The notes under the pieces were generated by a model that ran no database searches, was not told where the DNA came from, and was given only the letters and a program-made list of their open reading frames with translations. The translations under genes and the position numbers were made by a program. Positions 11,367-62,470 of a stretch of 64,000 bases of DNA are shown here, piece after piece. The stretch covers positions 1-64,000 of the IMG/VR virus record IMGVR_UViG_3300022744_000002; one strand, written 5' to 3'. This DNA is from a virus. Each line of letters opens with the position of its first letter. Positions within the stretch are counted from its first letter, which is position 1.

Positions 11367-11844
11367 CGCCGCGACTGCCGATCTGGTGTCCCTGGCAGCT
11401 GACCTGTCGGCGGCCAGTGGCGACTCACTGATGATCAGCGCCGAGAAGATCATCAAGGACGCAGCCCAGAAGATCCAGGCCACCGCGCAGGCCAATGCCC
11501 CCTTCAAGAGCGGGAAGCTGCGCGCATCCATCCGGATCCGCTATGTCGGCCCCCTGACGGCCATCATCGGCCCCAGCGTGGACTACGGGGTCTATCAGGA
11601 GTTCGGCACCGGCACCCGGGGCGAGTTCCCCACCGGGGTGTATGAGATCCGGCCGCGTAACGCGAAGGTGCTGTCGTGGACCTCGAATGGCAAGCGCCGG
11701 TTCGCCAAGGTCGTTCATCATCCAGGCATCAAGCCGCACCCGTTCATGCGGCCGGCCTTCGAGCAGGTGCTGGGAGATGACGTTGTCTCTGCGCTGGCTG
11801 ACGCGGGTCTGGCCGCCATCACGAGAGGCCCGGGTGCGAAGTGA
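11359..11844 (+). CDS. HK97 gp10-like tail/neck component
   Basis: AAQKIQATAQANAPFKSGKLRASI... matches the gp10-family pattern. The ATG at 11359 overlaps the previous stop, and 11347 is an alternative start. Confidence 0.55.
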   Translation: MANAATADLVSLAADLSAASGDSLMISAEKIIKDAAQKIQATAQANAPFKSGKLRASIRIRYVGPLTAIIGPSVDYGVYQEFGTGTRGEFPTGVYEIRPRNAKVLSWTSNGKRRFAKVVHHPGIKPHPFMRPAFEQVLGDDVVSALADAGLAAITRGPGAK

Positions 11845-12287
11845 TCGAGCGTAGGCTTCTGACGGCGGCTGTGGTGGAGGCAGCCGCCACTACCGGGATC
11901 CCGATCGGTCTTGCGCACGCGGCCGATGGGGGAGGCTGGCAGGGGCAGCCCAACCTCGACACCTCGGACTTCGTCCCCTACGGCGTGGTCACCCCCAACA
12001 CGGCCACCAACGCCACCGGCCCGATGGGCGATCCCCAGGCCGATCGGCAGATCCCCTACTCCGTCGCCGCCTTTGGAGTGAAGGCCGAGCAGGTCGAGTG
12101 GGTGGCCGACAAGCTGAGGGCGGCGATCGAGGCCCTCAAGAAGACCGACGTCCATCTGGGCGACGGCGTCTACAGGATTCAGCAGGTGCGGACCGACGTC
12201 ATCGGTGGACTGCAGCGTGTTGATGCGACCGAGCCCCCGTACTGGGGCCAGGTCGATGTACTGACCCTCTGGCTCACCCGGGCCTGA
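11841..12287 (+). CDS. Tail terminator / tail completion protein (putative)
   Basis: Last gene before the major tail gene. GTGA overlap with the previous gene. Confidence 0.45.
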   Translation: MIERRLLTAAVVEAAATTGIPIGLAHAADGGGWQGQPNLDTSDFVPYGVVTPNTATNATGPMGDPQADRQIPYSVAAFGVKAEQVEWVADKLRAAIEALKKTDVHLGDGVYRIQQVRTDVIGGLQRVDATEPPYWGQVDVLTLWLTRA

Positions 12288-12330: not shown

Positions 12331-12366
12331 GGAGGACCCATCATGGGCCGCGTAATCCCCAATGAG
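12331..12366 (+). repeat. Copy A of the duplicated RBS plus first 8 codons (MGRVIPNE)
   Basis: GGAGGACCCATCATGGGCCGCGTAATCCCCAATGAG. Confidence 0.9.
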
Positions 12367-12840
12367 AGGGAGAAGGCCGAGTCCGGCCCGAAGCCCGCTC
12401 AGAGGGAAAGCATTGCCCAAGAGGAGCGCAGGCTACGGGTCAAAGCGCAGCGTCGCGAGTACTACGAGAAGAACCGTGAGCGCATCCTGGAGAAGAACGC
12501 GGAGTGGAAAGCGAAGGCGCGGACGATCGGCTGGTCCCGTACCGACAACAACCACTACCTCGGGTACAAGTACGGCATCACGCTGGACGAGTACGAAGAA
12601 ATGCTGGCAGGACAGAACGGAGTCTGCGCATCCTGCGGGACGCCACCGGCTGGCAGGAAGTTGGCTGTCGATCACGACCATGAGACTGGTGTGATCCGTG
12701 GTCTGCTGTGCCAGCCATGCAATACGGCCCTCGGGCTGCTGCAAGAGTCACCCGATCGCGTAGCGTCCCTTCTGGCGTACGCGCTTTCTCACGAGAATGT
12801 GCTGCTAGCACAAGATAGGAGCCCATCATGGGCAGAGTGA
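12343..12840 (+). CDS. Recombination endonuclease VII family (HNH-like) homing endonuclease
   Basis: CASCG...LAVDHDHETGVIRGLLCQPCNTALG is the endonuclease VII signature. It interrupts an otherwise canonical tail gene row. Confidence 0.85.
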   Translation: MGRVIPNEREKAESGPKPAQRESIAQEERRLRVKAQRREYYEKNRERILEKNAEWKAKARTIGWSRTDNNHYLGYKYGITLDEYEEMLAGQNGVCASCGTPPAGRKLAVDHDHETGVIRGLLCQPCNTALGLLQESPDRVASLLAYALSHENVLLAQDRSPSWAE

Positions 12841-12851
12841 TACCAAACGAG
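12817..12851 (+). repeat. Copy B of the duplicated RBS plus first 8 codons (MGRVIPNE), synonymously recoded
   Basis: AGGAGCCCATCATGGGCAGAGTGATACCAAACGAG. Confidence 0.9.
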
Positions 12852-13610
12852 CAGACCTGGGTTGGGTTTGCCGCTTCCATCGCCAGTGCTGAGCTCGTCC
12901 CCACCGAGGAAGAGATCAACGGCGCCACCGACCTGACTCCGTTCCTGATGAGCCTGAACGCCTCGTCCCAGGGCAACGTCGTACCGACTCCGTCGTTCGA
13001 CACCCTGTTCGAGACGTCCATCGTCGGAACCTCGCAGGCCACCTTCACCGCTGACTTCTACCGCGACGCCGTGGCAGATACCGCGTGGGAGTCCTTCCCG
13101 CGTGGAACGGCCGGCTACGTGATCGTCTCCCGCTTCGGCGGCTCTGGCCCCGACCAGATCCCCCGCAATGGCGACACGGTCGAGGTGTGGCCGATCAACG
13201 TCGTGTCCCGCACTGCGGCTAACATGCAGAACAACGCCGTGCAGACCTTCACCATCACCTGCTCGGTGAACGTGGCCCCGAACGAGGCCGCGGTCGTTAC
13301 CGGCGCAGTTGCTGGTACCCCGAGCGCCCCGCGCAACGTCGTCGGCACGGCCACCGCAGCCACCACGGCCACCATCGACTTCGACGCCCCGACCTACGTC
13401 GGTGCGGGCCTCACGGCTCCGTACTACGCGGTCTACAAGTCGGCCAGCTCAGGCGGCTCGTACACGCTGTGCACGGCCACCATCGTCGGCACCACGGCGC
13501 AGGTCACCGGCCTCACCACGGCCACGACCAGCTACTTCAAGGTGCTGGCGCACAATGCTGCTGGTGATGGCCCGCTGTCCGCAGCGAGCACCGCAGTCAC
13601 CCAGCCCTAA
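12828..13610 (+). CDS. Major tail protein with C-terminal FN3/Ig-like domain
   Basis: Lies between the tail terminator-like gene and the chaperone pair. The C-terminal region (PSAPRNV...YFKVLAHNAAGDGPLS) looks FN3-like. Confidence 0.7.
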   Translation: MGRVIPNEQTWVGFAASIASAELVPTEEEINGATDLTPFLMSLNASSQGNVVPTPSFDTLFETSIVGTSQATFTADFYRDAVADTAWESFPRGTAGYVIVSRFGGSGPDQIPRNGDTVEVWPINVVSRTAANMQNNAVQTFTITCSVNVAPNEAAVVTGAVAGTPSAPRNVVGTATAATTATIDFDAPTYVGAGLTAPYYAVYKSASSGGSYTLCTATIVGTTAQVTGLTTATTSYFKVLAHNAAGDGPLSAASTAVTQP

Positions 13611-50684: not shown

Positions 50685-53600
50685 ATGAGGTTCGTTGGCG
50701 ATCCGTCTCTCTATGTCGAGGGGCTGGCAGATCTCGCCGTCGAGGGTCTGCTCGACAGCACTGTCGGTCCCAGCGTCGTCACCACCACCTACACCGAGGA
50801 CTACGCGCTCTACTTCAACCGATCGCTGCTGCTGTCGGATGCCGTGGGGCTGGGGGCCGGGGACCAGCCCTACTTCGACGACGTCATCTTCCTCACCCGG
50901 ACCGCTGGCCCCAAGGCGGCTTCGGCTAACCAGAGTGTTGCGACCACCCAGACGGCCAGCGGGATCGTCAGCAGCTCGCGTGCGACCTCCTCGGCCACAA
51001 TCACCCGCACCAACCTCTTCCCGAATCCTTCAGTTGAGGTGGGCACCACTGGGTTCTCGGGAGCCAATGCCTTTGAGCGGATAACTTCGTATCACCGATT
51101 CGGTGTGGCCGCGATGGCGTGCTACACGGTGCCGGGGCAGTCCGACACCAACATGCTCTATACGACGTCGGTCACCACGACTCAAACCGGCAACCACACC
51201 ATCTCCGTCTACGTCTTCTGCGGTTCTGGTTCCCCGATGATCGGCAAGACCATCAGCCTCACAGTGGAGGGTGGCACGGCCACCGTTACCCCTGGGGCTT
51301 CCACGCCTGCCACCTTCGTTGCTGACACCTGGGTCCGCTCCTCGCTTGTGGTGAACGTGACGGGTAACGGGACGATCCTGAGCGTCGCGCGGCTGAGCGT
51401 CGCGCCCAGCTCGCTGCCTGATTACACCTCCATGGTCGTGGATGGGTGGCTGCTGGAGACAGGCAGCGAACTCCTTCCCTACTTCGACGGCTCCGTGATC
51501 GACTCGATCAACCCCGACTCCATCGCCTGGAATGGCACAGCGCACAACTCGTCGTCCACGGTCACATACCACCCCAGCGGCTATGCGATGTACGCGACGG
51601 CGGCCGAGGGCTCTGCTACCAAGAGCCCGACAGCCAGCCTCACGGTCACCCCAACTTCTGCTGCCACGCCGCAGCTGATGAGCAAGTCCACCGGGGCTAC
51701 CCAGACTCTCTCGCCGGTTGGGGCTGCCTCAGGGACGGTTACCAGGGCCACGACAGCCGCGCTGACCGTTACTCCTACATCGGTAGCGGGGGCTACGAAC
51801 TCGAGCAGCGTCTCTGCCGCGCTGACCGTTACTCCGGTGCTTACTGCGGCCCTTGGATCACGCGCCGTCAGCGGCTCTGCTGATCAAGCGATAGCCACTA
51901 CTGGCAGCGGGACGCTGGGAGCCAACAGCAAGAGCGTTACGGCTTCCTGGACAGTCACCACCGTCACTACTGCAACACCTGCTGCTATCACGGATCAGGC
52001 CACCGCCGATCTGGTAGTCAATCCCGTTCTGGTTGCTGCAGGCGCCAAGTCAGTCAGTACAGGCGCTACAGGCATCACGATCACCACGACGGGTGCCGCT
52101 GCGCTGTCGGCCATCGTCGATACGGCTACAGCAGACCTTGTCGTCACGCCTATCGCACTGGCCGTTGGCACGTCGAACAAGAGCGCCACTGCCGCCCTAG
52201 TGGTCACTACGGCCACGACCGCCGTTCCGCTCCCCATCAGCGACAGCGCCACCGCTGACCTGAGCACCAGTCCCCTTACTGCCGCCGCTGCTCAGACGTT
52301 GTCCAAGAGTACGTCCGCTGTTCTGACTATCACGCCCGCTACAGCTGCCAGCGGGAGCCTCACCAAGGCCTCCACCGCTGCCCTAACCGTTACGCCGACC
52401 CCTGCAGCCAGCGCAAGCGCCCTCAAGTCAGCCACAGCTGCCTTCGACTTCGGCAGTGTGGGTGGTGGCGGCTCGTCCACTGTTCGTCCGGGCACATGGA
52501 CGACAGGCGGGATGTGGGTCACTCCTCCGCCCAACCCCTCGCCCACCTGGTCCACTCCGGTCTACGGCCTGCTCGAGTTCTACGACGCGGGCTACGTGGA
52601 CATGACGTTCGATACGACGTCCATCCCCGCCGACGCCACGATCACCTCGTGGAACATGTCGATCGCGATGAACGGCGACACTCTCGATGAGAGTGGCAAC
52701 AGCACATACACCTGGACCCTGTACGAGGGGACGTCAACCTTCCGCGATGGTGGGAACAGCTCAGATGGCACCACCTTCACGGCCCACGCCCTCGTAGCGC
52801 CCGCGTCCTGGCGCAGCAGTTCGCTGACATATCGCCTTGCCATCAGCAATGACGACTATGACTTCCGTGAGGGCATCTACCTCAGCGAGCCCAAGATCGC
52901 TGTGGTCTACACGGCTGCTGGCTCGGGGATCAGTGGCGCGGGCAGTGGATTTGTCACGGACTACGGGACTGTGTCGGCGACGATCACCCCCACGGTGGTG
53001 GCGGCCGGTGTAGACACAGCGTTCCGGACCGCTTCACTGACCGTTGCCCCAACAGGGACGGCAGACGGTACGTCTGTTGCACCGGCCAAGTACGGGGACG
53101 CCGATCCGCTGCTGGTCACGGTGGCTACGACAGCAATGGGTACGGTGGCCAAGTCGGCCACGGCTGCGGGGACAGCATCGGTCGTAACGGACGCAGCAGG
53201 CACCAAGTCGATCAGTGGTACCGCCGCCACGGCCACCGTGTCCTTGGTGCCTGCTGCCTCGGGCACCGCGAGCAAGAGCGCGTCGGCCGATCAGCTCGTC
53301 ACTACCAGCACCACGGTCGTCCCGCTGCCCATCACCGACAGTGCCAGCGCCAACCAGAGTGTTGTCACCGCTCAGGCGGCTGCGGGAACGGTCACCAAGA
53401 GCGCCAGCACCAGCCTGAGCGTCACTCCCAGCACGCAGGCAGCGGGCGCGGTCGCCAAGAGCGCCACGGCAACCTTGACGGTCACTCCGGTGACGCTGGC
53501 CAGCCTGGGGGCTAACTCCAGCGCAACCTCGGCTGCTTTCGTTGTCTCTACCGTTCCTGCTGCCTCGCTGGGTACGGTGAGCAAGAGCGGGACAGCTGAC

Positions 53601-55013
53601 TTTGTCGTAACGACAACCTCCACGGCTGTCCCGCTTCCGATCGCCGATGTCGCCACGGCTGACGGGACTGTCACCGCCACCCCAGCAGCGTCCGGCAGTG
53701 TCAGCAAGGCCACCACAGCCAGCGTCACGGTCACTACCACCCCGCTGGCCGGCGCCTCCAATGCGTCCTCGACTACTGCTTCGCTGACGCTGACACCGAT
53801 TACCACGGCATCTGGCGACTCGAACAAGGCCACAACGGCCAATCAGGTTGTCGCTACCACGCAGCTTGGAGCGCTGGGGGCCGACTCCAAGTCCACGACC
53901 GCTGTACTTGGAGTGACGACCTCCAGCACGGCCGTCCCCTTGCCGATCACTGACTCGGCCACCGCTGATCTGACCACCAGTCCTGAGACGCTTGCTGCGT
54001 TGGGGGTCGTCGAGAAGGCCTCGACTGCTGGGCTGGTGGTCAGTCCTTCTGTTAGCACAGGTGGTGTTGTCCAGGATCTGGCCTCCGCTGACCAGTCAGT
54101 GGCCGCCACGACTACGGCGGCGAGCACGGCGAGCAAGAGCGCCACCGCCTCCCTAGTGGTCACCACGACCTCCACAGCGCTGCCTGAGGACACCGGCAGC
54201 GCCGATCCCCTGACGGTCGCTGCGACCACAACGGCGGCTCTTGGGGTGGTCCTCAAGTCCTCCACGGCCTCCCTGAGCGTGACCACCAGCGCCTCAGCGG
54301 TGCCCCAGGAGATCACTGATGCGGCCACCGCTGATCTGGCTGTGTCAACGGCTCAGACGGCCAATGGATGGTCAAGCAAGAGCGCGACAGCCTCGTGGAC
54401 CGTCGTCACCACCACCACCTCAAGGATCGAGGAGGCGGCAGCGGCAGACGGGGCGGTCACCACCCTCACCGCTGCCTCAGGCACGGTCAGCAAGTCCTCG
54501 ACAGCCACCCAGAGTGTGTCCACCACGCCAGCTGCTGGGGGCACGAGGACCCAGTTCGCCACGGCTGCGGGGTACACCTACGCCACCGGCCAGGGCATTC
54601 CCTCGCCCATCACCGATGCCTCGGGCGCCGGGCTCTACACGATCCCGCTCACCCAGGCGACCGGCACGGTCAGCAAGAGCGCCTCAGCCGACGTCGTGGT
54701 GACCACACAGGCGCTCTCAGCAGCTCTGAAGTACGCCTACGCCACCGCTGCCCTGCTGGTGGCTCAGGAGTCCTCTGGGAGCTCTACACGGGAGGCTGTG
54801 GCCACCGCCGATCATTTGGCCGTCATCCTCACGGACGCTGGCTCCTGGTGTCTCAAGCTTGCCGAGGCGGGGCTCGAGGTCGATCCCATCCCCTGGGCTG
54901 ATGGGTACAACCTCCAGACCTGGTACGCCGAGGCCCACCAGGTGGTCGAGGTGCTGGCGGCAGCGGCCGGCCGGATGAAGACACGCGAGCACTGGGGCTA
55001 CCTGAGGCTCTAG
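50685..55013 (+). CDS. Giant repeat-containing tail fibre/spike-like protein (1442 aa)
   Basis: The N-terminal region (NLFPNPSVEVGTTGFSG...) looks like a carbohydrate-binding jelly-roll. Two long arrays of ~20-aa Thr/Ala/Ser repeats follow, then a distinct C-terminal ~70 aa. Confidence 0.65.
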   Translation: MRFVGDPSLYVEGLADLAVEGLLDSTVGPSVVTTTYTEDYALYFNRSLLLSDAVGLGAGDQPYFDDVIFLTRTAGPKAASANQSVATTQTASGIVSSSRATSSATITRTNLFPNPSVEVGTTGFSGANAFERITSYHRFGVAAMACYTVPGQSDTNMLYTTSVTTTQTGNHTISVYVFCGSGSPMIGKTISLTVEGGTATVTPGASTPATFVADTWVRSSLVVNVTGNGTILSVARLSVAPSSLPDYTSMVVDGWLLETGSELLPYFDGSVIDSINPDSIAWNGTAHNSSSTVTYHPSGYAMYATAAEGSATKSPTASLTVTPTSAATPQLMSKSTGATQTLSPVGAASGTVTRATTAALTVTPTSVAGATNSSSVSAALTVTPVLTAALGSRAVSGSADQAIATTGSGTLGANSKSVTASWTVTTVTTATPAAITDQATADLVVNPVLVAAGAKSVSTGATGITITTTGAAALSAIVDTATADLVVTPIALAVGTSNKSATAALVVTTATTAVPLPISDSATADLSTSPLTAAAAQTLSKSTSAVLTITPATAASGSLTKASTAALTVTPTPAASASALKSATAAFDFGSVGGGGSSTVRPGTWTTGGMWVTPPPNPSPTWSTPVYGLLEFYDAGYVDMTFDTTSIPADATITSWNMSIAMNGDTLDESGNSTYTWTLYEGTSTFRDGGNSSDGTTFTAHALVAPASWRSSSLTYRLAISNDDYDFREGIYLSEPKIAVVYTAAGSGISGAGSGFVTDYGTVSATITPTVVAAGVDTAFRTASLTVAPTGTADGTSVAPAKYGDADPLLVTVATTAMGTVAKSATAAGTASVVTDAAGTKSISGTAATATVSLVPAASGTASKSASADQLVTTSTTVVPLPITDSASANQSVVTAQAAAGTVTKSASTSLSVTPSTQAAGAVAKSATATLTVTPVTLASLGANSSATSAAFVVSTVPAASLGTVSKSGTADFVVTTTSTAVPLPIADVATADGTVTATPAASGSVSKATTASVTVTTTPLAGASNASSTTASLTLTPITTASGDSNKATTANQVVATTQLGALGADSKSTTAVLGVTTSSTAVPLPITDSATADLTTSPETLAALGVVEKASTAGLVVSPSVSTGGVVQDLASADQSVAATTTAASTASKSATASLVVTTTSTALPEDTGSADPLTVAATTTAALGVVLKSSTASLSVTTSASAVPQEITDAATADLAVSTAQTANGWSSKSATASWTVVTTTTSRIEEAAAADGAVTTLTAASGTVSKSSTATQSVSTTPAAGGTRTQFATAAGYTYATGQGIPSPITDASGAGLYTIPLTQATGTVSKSASADVVVTTQALSAALKYAYATAALLVAQESSGSSTREAVATADHLAVILTDAGSWCLKLAEAGLEVDPIPWADGYNLQTWYAEAHQVVEVLAAAAGRMKTREHWGYLRL
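51615..52450 (+). repeat. Repeat array 1 inside the 1442-aa gene (units like K-S-x-T-A-x-L-x-V-T-P-x6-9)
   Basis: Read from the translation. DNA copies are diverged and boundaries are approximate. Confidence 0.7.
52965..54760 (+). repeat. Repeat array 2 inside the 1442-aa gene (alternating ..VTP.. and ..TTAVPLPI[ST]D.ATADL.. units)
   Basis: Read from the translation. Boundaries are approximate. Confidence 0.7.
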
Positions 55014-55912: not shown

Positions 55913-56221
55913 ATGGCTGACGTCATTGAAATCGACGCCGTCACAGGCGAGGTCATCCACCGGGACTTCACCGCCGAGGAGATCGCGCAGCGAAATGCTG
56001 ATATGGCTGCAGCCGCGATCCAAGCCGCTGCCGACGCATTGACGTCAGGCAACAAGGCCACCATCGAATCGCGGGCCATGACAGCACTGACCACCAACCG
56101 GGACTTTCTTGCTCTTGCCTCGCCCACCAACGCTGAGGCGCTTGCGCAGATCAAGGCGCTGACGCATCAGAACGTGGCGATCATCCGCCTGCTGCTGGGC
56201 GCCCTGGAGGGCGTGGACTGA
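55913..56221 (+). CDS. Hypothetical protein (102 aa, helical)
   Basis: ORF track. Tight packing. Confidence 0.55.
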   Translation: MADVIEIDAVTGEVIHRDFTAEEIAQRNADMAAAAIQAAADALTSGNKATIESRAMTALTTNRDFLALASPTNAEALAQIKALTHQNVAIIRLLLGALEGVD

Positions 56222-59200
56222 TGCCCACCTCACGGATCCGTACCGACGCATCGTTCCATACCCTCAACCCCTCACAGGCGATCAGCGCCACGGGCGGGAC
56301 GATCTCCACGTTCACTCAGAATGGGATTGACTACACCTGCCATACGTTCCTGACATCCGGCACGTTCACCGTGGCTGCGGGCACAGGATTGGTGGAGTAC
56401 CTCGTTGTCGGCGGGGGCGGCGGTTCTTGTGGAGTGAACAACACCGGAGCAGGCGGGGGTGGTGCAGGTGGTTATCTGGCAGGAACCATCGCCGTAAGCC
56501 CCGGTTCCTACTCCATCGTCGTAGGCGCAGGCGGTGTTGCAGGCGGTGTCGGGAACACCGATGCGGGCAACGGCGGGTATTCATCGTTCGGGTACCTCAC
56601 TGCTGCCGGTGGTGGTGGAAGTCTGGCTATTGCCCGTGGGCGTGACGGCGGGTCTGGTGCAGGCGGCGCCAACGGGACGTACCTACCAGGACTGGCTGTT
56701 GCGGGTAGTCAAGGAAACTCCGGAGCGCAGGGTGGATCGGGCATCACCACTGCTGGCGGCGGTGGTGGAGCCGGTGGAGCCGCGTCCGGTACCACAGGGG
56801 GAGCAGGACTGGCTAACTCCATTACCGGGGCGTCAGTCACCTATGCCGCAGGTGGTAACGGATCAACGGGGACGGTCAATGGAACAGCCAACACAGGAAA
56901 CGGTGCAAGCGGAACCAACACTGCCAGTACGGCAGCAGGAGCGACTGGTGGCTCAGGCATCGTCATCATCCGCTACCCCAACAAGCCTCGCGCCGTCCCC
57001 ACGTCAGCGATAGTCAGCGGGGCCAGCAATGCCACGTACACCAGCACCACTCCCGATGGATACCTGCAACTGCCAGGAACCAATGGCTCCTATGCGTCAG
57101 TCCCGGATGCGGCGGCACTGGACATCACCGGAGACATCGATATCCGCGTCAAAGTCGCTCTAGACACCTGGACTATCAGCGGACAGGGAAACCTTCTTGC
57201 CAAGAATGGAGCTTCAGGCAACTACTCCTACGGCATGCGACTGACAACTGCCAGCGAGATACGCATTTACTGGTCTCCTGACGGGACAACAGCAGGCACC
57301 TACATGCAATCGACTGTCAGTCTCCCAGCGCTAGCTGATGGCGCAGCTCTGTGGCTGCGGGCCACACTGGATGTGGACAACGGGTCGTCTCAAAGAGTCG
57401 CCAATTTCTACACCTCAAACGACGGTGCTACGTGGACGCAACTAGGTTCCACTGTCACGACGGCAGGTGCCACCAGCATCTACTCAGGAAACACTAATCT
57501 TGTCATCGGATCCATGTACGACGGAAACTATGCCACCGCTGGCAAGTTCTACCGTGCGCAGGTCTACAACGGCATCAACGGAACCATGGTCCTTGATGCT
57601 GATTTCTCTACCATGCCTACGGGCACCACTACCTCGTTTACTGCTAATACGGGGCAGACGGTGACGCTCACAGGATCACCAACTGTCGTGACAGGCACGA
57701 GAACCTACGACGTCTACACGTTCCTGTCCTCAGGCACGATCACGCTGGCTGCTGGTGGCATGGTGGACATGCTTGTCGTTGGCGGCGGGGGTGGTGGTGG
57801 CGGAACAGGCAACTACTACGCAGGTGGCGGTGGAGCGGGTGGAGTTCTTCTGACGTCTGGTTATCTGCCAGCCGGATCACTTACTGTCACTGTTGGAACG
57901 GGGGGCGGTGCGGGTTACGCAGATACCAACTCGTCAGGCAACGGCAAGGCAAGTTCTGTTGGCCTCTACGCCGCTCCCGGCGGTGGCGGGTGCAGTGCAG
58001 TCAACGCGGCCAACGCCGCAGGTAACAATGGTGGATCTGGCGGTGGCGGGAAGGCGACAGCCGGTACCGGTGGAGCAGGTACGCCGGGGTTCGGAAACAA
58101 CGGTGGTGTCGGTAATGGAAGCAGCAGCGGCTCTGGTGGCGGTGGCGGTGGGGCCGGTGCAGTAGGTGCTGACGGAACCACCGGAGTGGGCGGTGCAGGC
58201 GGTGTCGGTATCGCGTCCACCATCCGCGACGGTTCCACGGTCGTCTACTACGGCGGCGGTGGTGGTGGCTCGTCCACTACTGGTGGCTCGGGTGGCAATG
58301 GCGGCGGTGGAGCAGGAGCGTCAGGAACTGCTACCGGAACAGCTGGTACGGCCAACACAGGCGGTGGTGGCGGTGGCGGAAACGGCACTGGCGGAGTCGG
58401 CGGGTCAGGCATCGTCGTCATCCGCGTCCCACGAGCCACCCCTGTTGCGGGTCAGGTCGTAGCCTCAGGCGGGACAGAGTCCACCTACACCGGCAATGGC
58501 ACCAACGGCCTCAATGGGCAGAATTACAAGGTCCACACCTTCACCAGCGGGGGTTCCCTCGTCGTGAGCAACGCGGGCATGGTGGACGTACTGATCGTCG
58601 GTGGGGGCGGCGCAGGAGGAACGACGAGCAGTACCGGCGCTTCCAGTTACCGTGGCGGTGGTGGTGGAGCAGGCGGCGTTGTCACGCAGTCGATGTATAT
58701 CCCTGCCGGAACTCACACTGTGACAGTAGGTGCGGGAGGCGCGGGGGCAGCAGTCGCCTACAGCGTCTACACCGGAGGGGATAGCGCACTCGGAACACTG
58801 GTCACTGCTGCTGGTGGCGGCAGCGGCGGCGGGGTGAATGTCTACGACATGCTCGCGGAGAAGGGCGGCAGTGGCGGAGGTTCTCCAGACTCCACGTCGT
58901 ACCCGACTGTCGTAGGGCAGGGAATACTCAATCAGGGAAACCGTGGCGGATACGCGACAGGAACTATCTCCACCAACGCAGGTGGTGGTGGGGGTGCCGG
59001 GGCGGTTGGTTCGGATGGAGTGAGCGGTTCCGCAGGCGGTGCCGGTGGCGCGGGCATCACGTCCTACATCACAGGGTCGTCTGTTGCGTACGGCGGTGGT
59101 GGTGGAGGAAGCGGCAATGCCGGTGGCGCAGGCGGTAACGGCGGTGGTGGTGCAGGTGCAGCAAGTGGTACTGCTACTAGTGGAACCGCCAACACAGGTG

Positions 59201-59283
59201 GTGGCGGTGGTGGGACATACAACGGCGCTACCTCTGGCAACGGTGGCAGTGGCATCGTCATCGTGAGATACCCCATTACCTAG
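56221..59283 (+). CDS. Multi-module glycine-rich-domain tail protein with central LamG/ConA-like domain (1020 aa)
   Basis: Three glycine-rich modules begin ..TF.SSGT[FI]T[VL]AAG..V[ED][YM]L[VI]VGGGG and end GGSGIV[IV][IV]R[YV]P. The region ~57040-57640 (DGYLQLPGTNGSYASVPDAAALDITGDIDIRV...) looks like a laminin-G jelly-roll. Confidence 0.65.
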   Translation: MPTSRIRTDASFHTLNPSQAISATGGTISTFTQNGIDYTCHTFLTSGTFTVAAGTGLVEYLVVGGGGGSCGVNNTGAGGGGAGGYLAGTIAVSPGSYSIVVGAGGVAGGVGNTDAGNGGYSSFGYLTAAGGGGSLAIARGRDGGSGAGGANGTYLPGLAVAGSQGNSGAQGGSGITTAGGGGGAGGAASGTTGGAGLANSITGASVTYAAGGNGSTGTVNGTANTGNGASGTNTASTAAGATGGSGIVIIRYPNKPRAVPTSAIVSGASNATYTSTTPDGYLQLPGTNGSYASVPDAAALDITGDIDIRVKVALDTWTISGQGNLLAKNGASGNYSYGMRLTTASEIRIYWSPDGTTAGTYMQSTVSLPALADGAALWLRATLDVDNGSSQRVANFYTSNDGATWTQLGSTVTTAGATSIYSGNTNLVIGSMYDGNYATAGKFYRAQVYNGINGTMVLDADFSTMPTGTTTSFTANTGQTVTLTGSPTVVTGTRTYDVYTFLSSGTITLAAGGMVDMLVVGGGGGGGGTGNYYAGGGGAGGVLLTSGYLPAGSLTVTVGTGGGAGYADTNSSGNGKASSVGLYAAPGGGGCSAVNAANAAGNNGGSGGGGKATAGTGGAGTPGFGNNGGVGNGSSSGSGGGGGGAGAVGADGTTGVGGAGGVGIASTIRDGSTVVYYGGGGGGSSTTGGSGGNGGGGAGASGTATGTAGTANTGGGGGGGNGTGGVGGSGIVVIRVPRATPVAGQVVASGGTESTYTGNGTNGLNGQNYKVHTFTSGGSLVVSNAGMVDVLIVGGGGAGGTTSSTGASSYRGGGGGAGGVVTQSMYIPAGTHTVTVGAGGAGAAVAYSVYTGGDSALGTLVTAAGGGSGGGVNVYDMLAEKGGSGGGSPDSTSYPTVVGQGILNQGNRGGYATGTISTNAGGGGGAGAVGSDGVSGSAGGAGGAGITSYITGSSVAYGGGGGGSGNAGGAGGNGGGGAGAASGTATSGTANTGGGGGGTYNGATSGNGGSGIVIVRYPIT

Positions 59284-61614: not shown

Positions 61615-61824
61615 ATGCCCACGCCAGACCTGTACCACCGCTTTCAGTACCACCCGCCGTCAACAGACCTCGTGAAGACGAACCACGAGACCATCCGGGC
61701 CGAGTGCTACCGCCTTGCCCTCATCCTCGACGCCCTGCCCGATGGGCGGGAGAAGAGCCTTGCCCTGACCAAGTTGGAAGAGGCCATGTTTTTCGCGAAT
61801 GCAGCCATCGCAAGGAACCAGTAA
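61615..61824 (+). CDS. Small helical-hairpin protein resembling the Acb2/Tad1-hairpin family (candidate nucleotide sponge)
   Basis: FQYHPP...NHETIRAECYRLALILDALPDGREKSLALTKLEEAMFFANAAIARNQ matches my memory of this widespread phage family. Confidence 0.45.
   Translation: MPTPDLYHRFQYHPPSTDLVKTNHETIRAECYRLALILDALPDGREKSLALTKLEEAMFFANAAIARNQ
61795..61824 (+). repeat. Copy C: last 9 codons plus stop (ANAAIARNQ*) of gene 61615..61824
   Basis: GCGAATGCAGCCATCGCAAGGAACCAGTAA. Confidence 0.9.
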
Positions 61825-62264
61825 TGCCACTCAACCTGACCGCTGAGCAGCGGATTGCCAAGAGCATCGTCACTGACGAGACAGGATGCTGGATCTGGCA
61901 GCGGGAGATCAATCCTGCTGGGTACGGCTGCATCAGGCTCAATAAGAAGCGTTGGCTCGTCCACAGGCTGACCTACACCCTGTTCGTGGGGGAGATCCCC
62001 GAGGGGATGGACATCGACCACCTGTGTCGCGTGAGGGACTGTTGCAACCCGAGCCACCTTGAGCCTGTGGACAGGAAGACCAACCTCATGCGCGGGGAAC
62101 ACCCCAATATGCAGGCACATCGTGAGGGGCGCTGCGCTCGTGGGCATGTGGTCAATCCAGATACAGCCTCGCCTAGGAGCGATGGCAGGCTCAAGTGCAG
62201 GGAATGCACCAATGCACGCGCCCGCGAGCGTAGGGCCAACGCCGCCATTGCGAGGAACCAGTGA
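61824..62264 (+). CDS. HNH homing endonuclease
   Basis: GCWIW...GYG N-terminal motif and DIDHLCRVRDCCNPSHLEPVDRKTNLMRG HNH core. It ends with the same 9 residues as the upstream gene. Confidence 0.8.
   Translation: MPLNLTAEQRIAKSIVTDETGCWIWQREINPAGYGCIRLNKKRWLVHRLTYTLFVGEIPEGMDIDHLCRVRDCCNPSHLEPVDRKTNLMRGEHPNMQAHREGRCARGHVVNPDTASPRSDGRLKCRECTNARARERRANAAIARNQ
62235..62264 (+). repeat. Copy D: the same 9 codons plus stop at the end of the HNH gene, synonymously different
   Basis: GCCAACGCCGCCATTGCGAGGAACCAGTGA. Confidence 0.9.
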
Positions 62265-62470
62265 CGTTCTCAGAGGCACTGGAGATCATCAAGCAAGGTG
62301 GAGTGGTCACCCGTGAGGGGTGGAACGGCAAGGGCATGTGGATCGCCCTGATGACCACCGAGGTGAGTCTGGACATGGGACGCCCCTACATCTTCATGAA
62401 GACCATTGACGACCAACTAGTTCCATGGGTGGCGTCCCAGACCGACCTGCTCGCGGAGGACTGGAAATGA
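62261..62470 (+). CDS. DUF2829-like protein (Tad2-type candidate anti-Thoeris sponge)
   Basis: MTFSEALEIIKQGGVVTREGWNGKGMWI...PYIFMKT.DDQLVPWVASQTDLLAEDW is the DUF2829 pattern as I remember it. The GTG start overlaps the HNH stop. Confidence 0.6.
   Translation: MTFSEALEIIKQGGVVTREGWNGKGMWIALMTTEVSLDMGRPYIFMKTIDDQLVPWVASQTDLLAEDWK

Follow-up and report, generated by a model that had tools for sequence, protein, structure and literature searches.

Within the 64,000-nt stretch of viral DNA analysed here (the window), two nuclease genes each lie between two copies of one end of a neighbouring gene. At site 1, an Endonuclease_7-family gene separates two versions of the start of the tail tube gene:

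11841..12287, + strand: neck/tail-terminator-like gene, 148 aa, left flank of the site (tblastn of relatives)
12331-12366, + strand: copy A, the native GGAGGA RBS, spacer CCCATC and tail tube codons 1-7/8, now the translation start and N-terminus of the nuclease
12343..12840, + strand: HNH1, 165 aa, Endonuclease_7 family (beta-beta-alpha-Me; Pfam PF02945), putative free-standing homing endonuclease
12799..12811, + strand: small hairpin GTGCT-GCT-AGCAC at the 3' end of the nuclease ORF, directly upstream of the cassette RBS
12818-12851, + strand: copy B, the cassette-borne GGAG RBS, CCCATC and first 8 codons, recoded synonymously, which makes the tail tube gene intact again
12828..13610, + strand: tail tube (major tail) gene, 260 aa, host gene of the insertion (Pfam Phage_TTP_16 and fn3)

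The ORFs of HNH1 (12343-12840) and the tail tube protein (12828-13610) overlap by 13 nt. Copy A reads GGAGGACCCATC ATG GGC CGC GTA ATC CCC AAT GAG (12331-12366), copy B reads GGAG--CCCATC ATG GGC AGA GTG ATA CCA AAC GAG (12818-12851), and both encode MGRVIPNE. The 12 nt CCCATCATGGGC are the same in the two copies; beyond them five of six codons differ, by six nucleotide changes that are all synonymous and use 6 of the 8 synonymous differences possible. For six random substitutions in codons 2-8 to keep the peptide, P = 3e-5. Our rereading agrees with an earlier note on this DNA, which had described the common MGRVIPNE, the 12 identical nucleotides and the six silent differences. Its figure of eight shared codons holds in the window; across lineages the part common to both copies is seven codons (MGRVIPN), and the eighth codon of the window (GAG) may derive from either partner.

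A six-frame scan for repeated peptides returned PIMGRVIPNE (10 residues) and ANAAIARNQ (9 residues, at site 2), each as several overlapping 7-mers, against 1-10 7-mer matches per codon shuffle, counted as 7-mers and not as runs. The duplication at site 1 is genuine and not a product of chance. An 8-residue repeat, SGQPSADQ (27635/30453), seems to be a chance match; the frames in which it falls are apparently non-coding ones of minus-strand genes. The hairpin at 12799..12811 is kept in five lineages, with 5 base pairs and no covariation.

HNH1 matches PF02945 over residues 72-146 (E 5.6e-23, 81.1 bits, cut-off 23.6) and has intact zinc and catalytic motifs, CASCG ... VDHDHETG ... RGLLCQPCN (CxxC ... 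DHDH ... CxxCN), which align with residues 10-71 of T4 endonuclease VII and with Hpy99I. The four-cysteine zinc site and the catalytic Asp/His/Asn motif are kept in five lineages. True Holliday junction resolvases also belong to PF02945, and F-CphI is a homing endonuclease with activity verified by experiment. Residues 17-146 of HNH1 show 37% identity to the S-PM2 ORF that GenBank records name F-CphI: homing endonuclease. The gene is under purifying selection (dN/dS 0.14-0.30), and its GC3 is 0.73 versus ~0.88 in the adjoining genes. Low dN/dS, intact catalytic motifs and likeness to F-CphI make it likely that HNH1 is active; purifying selection of this strength is unusual for a purely selfish gene, and a useful function would fit too. 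After codon 1 the ORF has no in-frame ATG, GTG or TTG until Met87, already within the catalytic domain, and the N-terminal fusion is in frame in all six lineages with the layout. The ATG of copy A at 12343 is therefore predicted to be the sole initiation site giving whole HNH1; the earlier note had proposed initiation there. The tail tube protein keeps its N-terminal motif, x-R-[ILV]-I-P-N-E, in most of 36 relatives.

Site 2 is the mirror image of site 1 and lies between two genes with anti-defence homologues:

61615..61824, + strand: Acb2/Tad1-like gene, 69 aa (Pfam PF24729, E 6.6e-21); its last 9 codons and stop (61795-61824) are the recoded, cassette-associated copy
61824..62264, + strand: HNH2, HNH_3 family, 146 aa (Pfam PF13392, E 7.7e-14, 51.5 bits, cut-off 24.8)
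62261..62470, + strand: Tad2-like gene, right flank of the site (Pfam PF11195, E 4e-25)

The ATG of HNH2 overlaps the stop of the Acb2-like gene (TAATG), and the last 9 codons and stop of HNH2 (62235-62264) are, in frame, the native Acb2 3' end. The Acb2-like gene ends GCG AAT GCA GCC ATC GCA AGG AAC CAG TAA (61795-61824) and HNH2 ends GCC AAC GCC GCC ATT GCG AGG AAC CAG TGA (62235-62264), with six differences, all silent (P = 5.5e-5). The earlier note saw the same architecture here as at site 1; the recurrence is real, and the form is a C-terminal mirror image, with the native copy on the C-terminus of the nuclease, rather than a second N-terminal case.

Native and recoded gene ends

Among relatives that have no nuclease at site 1 (L002, L005-L008 and L194), the tail tube gene has a single junction 55-60 nt after the neck gene; the neck gene itself is kept in relatives with and without the nuclease and ends 55-60 nt before the native tail tube start. 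Copy A is identical to the single tail tube start of L006 and L007 at 24/24 coding nt and to that of L194 at 21/21, and none of the nuclease-free relatives compared (L002, L005-L008, L194) has both copies. Because the lone start of these relatives has the nucleotides of copy A at the same spacing, comparison with them indicates that the native tail tube start is copy A, which the nuclease has taken over, and that copy B is the replacement. A single junction carrying one of the two versions had been predicted for nuclease-free relatives, and this is what they have, the version being copy A; they thereby support the proposal that the nuclease landed in the 5' end of the tail gene, took one start for itself and left a recoded copy to restore the gene.

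At site 2, the Acb2-like 3' end of nuclease-free L117 agrees with the downstream copy in 27/30 nt and with the upstream one in 23/30, so the native Acb2 3' end is the one fused to the C-terminus of HNH2. In L117 the Tad2-like homologue begins 12 nt after the Acb2-like stop.

The closest nuclease-free relatives at site 1 are only ~80% identical in nucleotides. The window has no nuclease-free twin in the data: the nuclease is present in each of the seven contigs whose tail tube protein is identical to that of the window, and hence genomes at short evolutionary distance show no presence/absence polymorphism. Searches of GenBank phage DNA with the site 1 locus gave no match and a search with the tail tube protein gave a lone match, in Streptomyces phage ZL12 at 29% identity; the comparisons therefore rest wholly on metagenomic contigs. 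One scan of metagenomes for the native start contributed just two further contigs of relevance, neither of which has the nuclease.

The codons of copy B are odd for this phage. AGA and ATA have 0 occurrences in ~5,000 codons of its structural genes. Between lineages, codon identity at conserved residues is 0.62 in the tail tube body and 0.86 among native-type starts, versus 0.12 between native starts and copy B, and within genomes native and copy B codons agree at only 4/23 positions (binomial P = 1.5e-5). Silent-only change had been thought to exceed drift, and the codons bear this out, being absent elsewhere in the structural genes and more diverged than orthologous codons between diverged lineages; judged in this way, the recoding of copy B is not drift. 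Selection for an unstructured initiation region, instead of immunity, could also account for AT-rich rare codons at a gene start. The GC3 profile along the tail tube gene does not discriminate, as the first 30 codons of the neighbouring gene are likewise low.

Other lineages have different recodings at the position of copy B. Among the relatives in our data, none has a start of the copy B type as its ordinary allele except copy A of L198, which is of the window's copy B type, and possibly nuclease-free L002, which is altered at the same four codons. The form of copy A in L198 suggests that its history included loss of the nuclease followed by re-invasion.

Recurrence among relatives and at other genes

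The layout of site 1 is found in five further lineages, with different recodings and with nucleases 38-78% identical to HNH1. L001 shares the layout of the window; by BLASTP/tblastn, nuclease identity to the window is 76% in L195, 80% in L198, 69% in L199-201 and 41% in L039; global alignment gives 68-76% instead, and 44% for L039. The assemblies behind these contigs are independent ones from JGI, ENA and Logan. In L038 (77%) the left junction matches and the contig ends before copy B. The remnant, that is, the native copy beside the nuclease, lacks protection at the protein level: it is changed by N7T in L199 and, at site 2, by N-to-H in L202, and is out of frame in L043.

On neck-gene identity, lineages with and without the nuclease are interspersed, as illustrated by L038 (with) and L194 (without), whose neck genes are 87% identical in nucleotides. 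Between the window and L195, identity is 60% nt / 49% aa for the neck gene, 74/73 for the nuclease and 75/76 for the tail tube gene. Patchy presence at one conserved site among relatives speaks for mobility of the nuclease gene. The layout of site 2 is found again in L202 and L204, and the GCAAGGAAYCAGTAAtg end of the Acb2-like gene also in L202; homologues of HNH2 (54-90% identity) all end RRANAA[IV]AR.

The earlier note had suggested searching for other endonuclease genes that duplicate the end codons of their neighbours, and such genes exist. In L043 a related Endonuclease_7 gene lies at the start of a kinase gene, with seven silent differences between the copies, an out-of-frame remnant and a start codon of its own; the kinase target has no relative above 33% identity. 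Related Endonuclease_7 genes with C-terminal duplications are present in L061 and L079. With 6-residue words, duplicated termini lie beside 5/51 Endonuclease_7 genes versus 6/282 shifted-window controls, and with 7-residue words beside 3/51 versus 1/282. Words of 5 residues were discarded, 13% of controls being positive, and at least 6 residues were demanded; as the 5-residue criterion is useless, the terminus duplications in L045 and L098 are merely suggestive. No such duplication is present in five cultured phages that also encode Endonuclease_7 proteins (Kumotta, Kaylissa, Stank, Klebsiella phi1_066007 and phiYeO3-12), and the layout is thus not general to the family.

Terminal replacement as the proposed explanation, its alternatives and its precedents

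We favor, with a probability of about 0.7, a model in which both nucleases are free-standing homing endonuclease genes that colonise the extreme ends of conserved phage genes by terminal replacement. In this model, the mobile unit at site 1 would run from the nuclease body through a strong RBS to the recoded first 7-8 tail tube codons, and it would be inserted after codon 7/8, such that the resident start drives the nuclease while the cassette copy rebuilds the tail tube gene. At site 2 the recoded last 9 codons and stop would complete the Acb2-like gene, and the native ones would become the C-terminus of HNH2. We infer that each enzyme cuts nuclease-free alleles within or beside the duplicated segment and that the break is repaired from a co-infecting nuclease-bearing genome, at site 1 with copy A and the neck gene as homology arm on one side and the tail tube body on the other. 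Under such a mechanism copy B must differ from the native start, as otherwise the right junction would rebuild a cleavable site; this would make the carrier self-immune. Unlike copies would also recombine less, lowering deletion. What the sequences establish is the anatomy, the identity of the native copy, the recurrence, the patchy distribution, the purifying selection on HNH1 and the abnormal codon choice of copy B; cleavage, cut site, homing and self-immunity are deductions of the model for both nucleases.

An alternative that we regard as unlikely is that the duplications are accidental scars of one-sided illegitimate repair after the transfer of a nuclease gene from a donor phage that shared homology with the recipient in the target gene only; copy B would then be the donor's neutrally diverged allele, with no selected recoding, and the duplication would not be a heritable unit. 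One-sided events with microhomology junctions do occur in T4 (PMC2988022), inserted ends in mitochondria cluster with foreign species (PMC3630166), the junctions here vary slightly by lineage (AAT|GAGAGG, AAT|AGCGAGAGG and AAC|GACAGG), and synonymous divergence between lineages is near saturation (dS 0.6-1.5). However, the junction is the same within one codon in six lineages, down to 41% nuclease identity, which argues that the layout is inherited. A neutrally diverged allele also fits poorly with a codon identity between native start and copy B far below that of the rest of the gene in the same lineages (0.12 versus 0.62), with copy B codons otherwise absent from the structural genes, and with the lack of a copy-B-type ordinary allele in any relative in the data besides copy A of L198 and possibly L002.

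It is quite improbable, in our view, that HNH1 is a domesticated useful enzyme, such as a junction resolvase or an HNH protein linked to packaging, put into the late operon by duplication of the strong tail tube initiation region, with silent differences that merely prevent recombination between the two starts. PF02945 does include T4 endonuclease VII, the dN/dS of the nuclease is as low as that of the tail tube gene, and the nuclease is predicted to be expressed from a strong late-gene initiation region. Against this, close relatives with the same structural module lack the nuclease, its GC3 is below that of the host genes, the nuclease of L043 has its own start next to an out-of-frame remnant, and the unrelated HNH_3 nuclease mirrors the layout at a gene 3' end, where no initiation region is captured. 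To the idea that the tail tube start was simply duplicated locally in tandem and then drifted neutrally, without any connection to the nuclease, we give almost no credence: short duplications occur and the copies share 12 identical nt, but it is the functional copy, under constraint, that holds all the changes while the copy free of constraint has none, the duplication is found solely where a nuclease separates the copies, and it recurs at other genes beside related nucleases. Comparison with the relatives is where this explanation already fails. An intron or intein was rejected, the tail tube ORF being complete without splicing and no Rfam family reaching its gathering threshold anywhere in the window.

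Target-site duplications of transposons are short and identical and arise from staggered transposase cuts. As in such duplications, direct repeats here flank an inserted gene; unlike them, the repeats are long (33-36 nt), unequal and of different age, one being demonstrably older, and they differ at nearly every silent position, so that this explanation was rejected too. Split genes offer another comparison. In Aeromonas phage Aeh1, nrdA is split by insertion of the endonuclease gene mobE, and in L208, a T7-like Yersinia phage, the DNA polymerase is split by an Endonuclease_7 gene. As in the window, an HNH-type nuclease lies inside essential coding sequence without intron or intein; in the split genes, the host protein becomes two polypeptides and nothing is duplicated, whereas here the host protein is whole.

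The closest precedents for terminal replacement are mobile endonuclease ORFs (mORFs) of mitochondria, which carry a foreign C-terminal copy of atp6, atp9, cox2 or nad3 while the native end stays downstream (PMC3630166). Replacement gene ends make atp6, atp9, cox2 and nad3 hybrids in Glomus, where one duplicated atp6 C-terminus differs from the sequence of a relative by synonymous changes only (PMC3630166); a mobile ORF in atp6 of Allomyces macrogynus is credited to Paquin, Laforest and Lang 1994, as cited in PMC3630166; and in Endoconidiophora endonuclease ORFs flank partially duplicated C-termini of atp6 and cob (PMC6279837). As here, the endonuclease ORF sits in a gene terminus, can be in phase with the host gene and brings a functional copy of the terminus, and the native one is left as a remnant beyond the ORF, a geometry that is exactly that of site 2. 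In the window, too, the ORF lies between a functional and a displaced copy of the terminus, the displaced one being native and the functional one more divergent, silently. The mitochondrial enzymes are of the LAGLIDADG or GIY-YIG type and belong to fungal mitochondria, and the described duplications are all C-terminal and span tens to hundreds of nt, whereas HNH-type enzymes of a phage are concerned here, with duplications of 24-36 nt. Site 1 differs further in being N-terminal, as the nuclease takes the RBS, start codon and first codons of the host gene. HNH-type enzymes, a phage genome and an N-terminal site thus indicate a shared working principle and not a shared family.

Among phages, T4 SegF and other Seg/Mob enzymes and F-CphI of S-PM2 are likewise free-standing nuclease genes beside conserved genes, with patchy distribution. 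For such enzymes, differences in target sequence protect the carrier genome and flanking markers are co-converted (PMC2988022, PMC12724721), and in T4 new sites can be reached through one-sided, microhomology-mediated break repair (PMC2988022). The described cases lie between genes, as is usual in descriptions of such genes, or in introns (PMC2988022, PMC12724721), whereas here the nucleases are inside the coding ends of essential genes and come with a spare part, a duplicated and recoded terminus that restores the gene. Full-text literature searches found no description of this layout in phages, while they did find the mitochondrial precedent and one-sided repair in T4, and the text of the T4 review (PMC2988022) contains no word beginning 'duplicat'.

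We suggest, tentatively and at somewhat less than even odds, that terminal replacement generally offers phage homing endonucleases a third route into conserved coding sequence, alongside introns and inteins, and that it leaves a readable record. If so, the junction of remnant and cassette would mark the cut site, and successive recodings, such as those of L198 copy A and L002, would record invasion, loss and re-invasion. The signature is a short peptide duplicated on the two sides of a nuclease gene, its copies saturated with silent differences; it would point to the gene that hosts the insertion, to which allele is older and to where the cut probably falls, so that sequence alone would suffice to map endonuclease targets and arms races throughout phage metagenomes. 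Lineage-specific recodings, with one allele seemingly recoded twice, would provide a natural series for the co-evolution of nuclease specificity and target escape. Terminal replacement would also account for odd annotations in which nucleases share N- or C-terminal peptides with their neighbours, and for the use of very rare codons where a highly expressed structural gene begins. Finally, the elements could drag linked genes between phages, including those for the anti-defence proteins Acb2 and Tad2; as HNH2 sits between two anti-defence genes, its homing could help such genes to spread.

The nuclease and its captured start

The ORFs of the 165-aa nuclease HNH1 and of the tail tube protein each open with a copy of the same gene start, and re-reading of the sequence agrees base by base with the description of the two copies in the earlier note. 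The features in the window are as follows.

12331-12366: copy A, GGAGGACCCATC ATG GGC CGC GTA ATC CCC AAT GAG, opening the 165-aa ORF
12343-12840: HNH1 ORF, 165 aa, Pfam Endonuclease_7 PF02945 (E 5.6e-23)
12818-12851: copy B, GGAG CCCATC ATG GGC AGA GTG ATA CCA AAC GAG, opening the 260-aa ORF
12828-13610: tail tube ORF, 260 aa, Pfam Phage_TTP_16 and a C-terminal fn3 domain

The two Pfam matches identify the 260-aa product as the tail tube protein, and the 165-aa ORF stops 13 nt within its gene. The surrounding siphovirus structural module is normal, with MuF-like, protease, capsid, DUF6093, HK97 gp10-like and 148-aa neck protein genes upstream and, 3' of the nuclease, the tail tube gene, two chaperone ORFs and the tape measure gene. 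The module opens, directly 5' of the MuF-like gene, with an 804-aa protein (95-2509) that carries an AAA+ ATPase domain at its C-terminus, an unusual occupant of that position. Because the nuclease ORF has no other in-frame start upstream of Met87, which lies within the catalytic domain, the captured tail tube start is the sole route to nuclease translation.

HNH1 looks functional, with a dN/dS of 0.14-0.30 over the whole gene (0.10-0.18 in the catalytic domain), against 0.16-0.27 for the tail tube gene. Its four-cysteine zinc site and DHDH/N motif align to T4 endonuclease VII and Hpy99I, and among GenBank phage matches it shares 37% identity with the S-PM2 ORF labelled F-CphI, a homing endonuclease in its records. 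GC3 is 0.73 in HNH1, 0.76 in the site 2 nuclease HNH2 and ~0.88 in structural genes. The 3' end of the cassette, which comprises nuclease body, ribosome-binding site and recoded gene end, is conserved and includes GTGCTGCTAGCAC (12799-12811), a small hairpin, ahead of a strong Shine-Dalgarno. Four lineages (L195, L198, L199, L038) share every nucleotide of this 5-bp hairpin (GTGCT-GCT-AGCAC), which sits at the 3' end of the nuclease ORF, though dS is near 1; it shows no covariation, and the same bases encode VLLA.

A six-frame scan for 7-residue peptides repeated within 3 kb returned, at ordinary gene boundaries, two runs made of several overlapping words, PIMGRVIPNE (10 residues, translated spacer included) and ANAAIARNQ (9 residues); codon-shuffled controls gave 1-10 single 7-mer hits per shuffle. 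Six random substitutions in codons 2-8 would preserve the peptide with P = 3e-5, and six of the eight possible silent differences between copies A and B are used. The 8-residue repeat SGQPSADQ (27635, 30453) falls in plus-strand frames of an apparently minus-strand-coded region, has dissimilar nucleotides and looks like chance. Many internal peptide repeats (AALTVTP, TAVPLPITDSA, GTANTGGGG) occur in two very large ORFs, 50685-55013 (1442 aa) and 56221-59283 (1020 aa), which probably encode repetitive tail fibre or surface proteins.

Polarity and recoding of the two copies

No DNA relatives of the locus were found among GenBank phages; relatives came from IMG/VR and other assemblies. In nuclease-free contigs (L002, L005-L008, L194 and more distant ones) the tail tube start lies 55-60 nt past the neck gene, the position of copy A in the window, and its sequence is that of copy A (ATGGGCCGCGTAATCCCCAATGAG, 24/24 identical in L006 and L007). 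Copy A is thus the resident tail tube start, and the comparison indicates that copy B arrived with, or after, the nuclease. None of the nuclease-free relatives examined carries two copies, in line with the prediction of the earlier note that they would hold a single start in one of the two versions.

The layout is inherited. Four further nuclease lineages, L195-197 (76% protein identity), L198 (80%), L199-201 (69%) and L039 (41%; all BLASTP or tblastn values), have it complete: the neck gene, then a native-type start running in frame into the nuclease, then a new Shine-Dalgarno, the second start and the tail tube, while L038 (77%) has the same left junction on a contig that stops at the nuclease 3' end. 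An assembly artefact is excluded, since samples and assemblers differ among the contigs. The peptide common to the lineages is seven residues long (MGRVIPN or MARIIPN), after which the nuclease-specific part opens D-R, S-E-R or E-R; the eighth shared codon of the window (GAG) could derive from either partner or represent 3-nt microhomology. Among other relatives, L013/L033 and L026 have an insertion of ~110-130 residues in the tail tube protein, ~20 residues from its N-terminus, and L010/L011/L014 have two tandem tail tube paralogues.

Synonymous divergence between lineages is high (dS 0.6-1.5), yet the native-type start is nearly invariant, as the codon comparison brings out.

Table. Fraction of identical codons at conserved residues
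Between lineages, tail tube body, codons 9-157: 0.62
Codons 2-7 among native-type starts, from copy A or nuclease-free genomes: 0.86
Codons 2-7 among copy B alleles: 0.36
Codons 2-7, native-type start versus copy B allele: 0.12

Within single genomes, the two copies agree at 4/23 comparable codons where 0.62 would be expected (binomial P = 1.5e-5), indicating that copy B is actively different from the native start, beyond drift. Its codons are also abnormal: AGA and ATA, both in the copy B of the window, have 0 uses in ~5,000 codons of the structural genes of this phage, and CCA, also in copy B, makes up 5% of proline codons there. With no tRNA genes encoded in the window, AGA and ATA must be read by host tRNAs. 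The rarest codons heading one of the most expressed genes are hard to explain except by pressure to diverge from the native nucleotides, to which selection for an AT-rich, unstructured initiation region offers a partial alternative. All changes are confined to the copy that still encodes the conserved tail tube N-terminus, copy A being unchanged, and altered remnants (native termini fused to a nuclease) change the protein or lose frame (N7T in L199, N-to-H in L202, out-of-frame in L043). The puzzle that every difference is synonymous, raised in the earlier note, therefore dissolves.

Indications of mobility and a proposed homing model

The distribution is patchy, nuclease-bearing and nuclease-free lineages being intermixed by neck-gene identity; the closest relative of L038 (with nuclease) is L194 (without), at 87% nt in the neck gene. 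Between the window and L195, identity (nt/aa) is 60/49% in the neck gene, 74/73% in the nuclease and 75/76% in the tail tube, so that the level of similarity shifts at the nuclease. L198 combines a native left flank with a copy A and ribosome-binding site (AGATAGGAGCCCGTC ATGGGCAGAGTGATCCCAAAC) of the copy B type of the window, and its own copy B is recoded once more (GGA CGA GTT ATA CCA AAT GAA). The simplest history would be nuclease loss leaving a recoded allele, re-invasion by a variant nuclease and further recoding, gene conversion between its two copies being an alternative. In nuclease-free L002 (4001-4045), the four tail tube start codons that copy B alleles recode are changed as well (CGG ATT ATT CCA), and the downstream codons TGG GTT GGG TTT are as in nuclease-bearing lineages; this start may be a resistant allele left after nuclease loss. 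The evidence for serial recoding is a new element relative to known systems.

We favor, at a probability of roughly 70%, a model whereby the layout is that of a homing cassette. The enzyme would cut alleles that lack the nuclease, within the duplicated segment or next to it, and break repair would use a co-infecting genome as template for the nuclease and copy B, the homology arms being copy A plus the neck gene on the left and the tail tube body on the right. Copy B would have to be recoded because an unrecoded copy together with native codons 9 onward would rebuild the full target; recoding would also make the broken left end less prone to pair with copy B and the repeats less prone to deletion. 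The cassette might most easily have originated by one-sided, microhomology-mediated break repair, which is documented in T4 intron homing (PMC2988022). The observation behind the earlier proposal of nuclease insertion into the tail gene is confirmed. The testable parts of that proposal (single-copy relatives matching copy A, polarity, recoding) are supported; its mechanistic parts are plausible.

The layout agrees with the intronless homing of free-standing phage endonucleases (PMC2988022, PMC12724721). An intron or intein was rejected, no Rfam family reaching the gathering threshold in the whole window, and the layout seems unlike a transposon target-site duplication. It shares its working principle with the mobile endonuclease ORFs of mitochondria, which bring a foreign C-terminal copy of atp6, atp9, cox2 or nad3 while the native end stays downstream (PMC3630166, citing Paquin et al. 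1994; also PMC6279837); however, enzyme class and host differ, so the phage layout is not a member of those families. Full-text literature searches and a 2023 survey of phage nuclease genes (PMC10448857) yielded no phage description of it. What is new is the phage setting, the HNH-type enzymes and the N-terminal version capturing the translation start of the host gene.

Other targets and the second site

Of 51 distinct Endonuclease_7 ORFs in viral contigs, 5 are bridged by a duplicated word of 6 or more residues, compared with 6 of 282 shifted-window controls; for 7 residues the counts are 3/51 and 1/282. Independent targets include a P-loop kinase start in L043 (ATGATCGTTGTTGGCCTGAGCGGC versus TTGATTGTCGTTGGTTTAAGTGGC) and C-terminal duplications in L061 and L079. 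None of five cultured phages checked has the terminal-duplication layout, which is recurrent, not universal. T7-like Yersinia phages show a different outcome, a DNA polymerase gene split by a related nuclease: in Yersinia phage YpP-G (L208, 14036-14470) the Endonuclease_7 gene sits within the motif RDNAKTF / IYGFLYGAG without duplication, a gene in pieces as an alternative to terminal replacement.

61824-62264: HNH2, HNH_3 family, flanked by an Acb2/Tad1-like gene and a Tad2-like gene

At this second site, the earlier note had claimed the same architecture. The duplicated gene end is there, the Acb2-like gene and HNH2 both ending ANAAIARNQ-stop with six silent differences between copies, but the arrangement is a mirror image, at the 3' end, with the native copy forming the nuclease C-terminus. 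In nuclease-free L117, from the same metagenome as L001, which shares the tail tube layout of the window, the Acb2-like gene is followed by 12 nt and then the Tad2-like gene, and its 3' end matches the downstream copy at 27/30 nt and the upstream copy at 23/30; the native end is thus now the C-terminus of HNH2, and a recoded end completes the Acb2-like gene. L202 and L204 repeat the layout with a drifted remnant, and RRANAA[IV]AR terminates every HNH2 homologue down to 54% identity. In L205 (1343-1792), a homologue of 69% identity follows a WhiB-like gene and a 66-aa ORF that is unrelated, and retains the Acb2-derived tail RRANAAVAR with no Acb2 gene at the locus; nuclease and captured remnant seem to move together.

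HNH2 lies exactly between two anti-defence families (61615-62470; Acb2/Tad1-like, Pfam E 6.6e-21; Tad2-like, 4e-25), and homing with co-conversion could spread both genes among phages. A 2026 paper (PMC13096335) connects the amplification of anti-defence loci with a T-even homing endonuclease.
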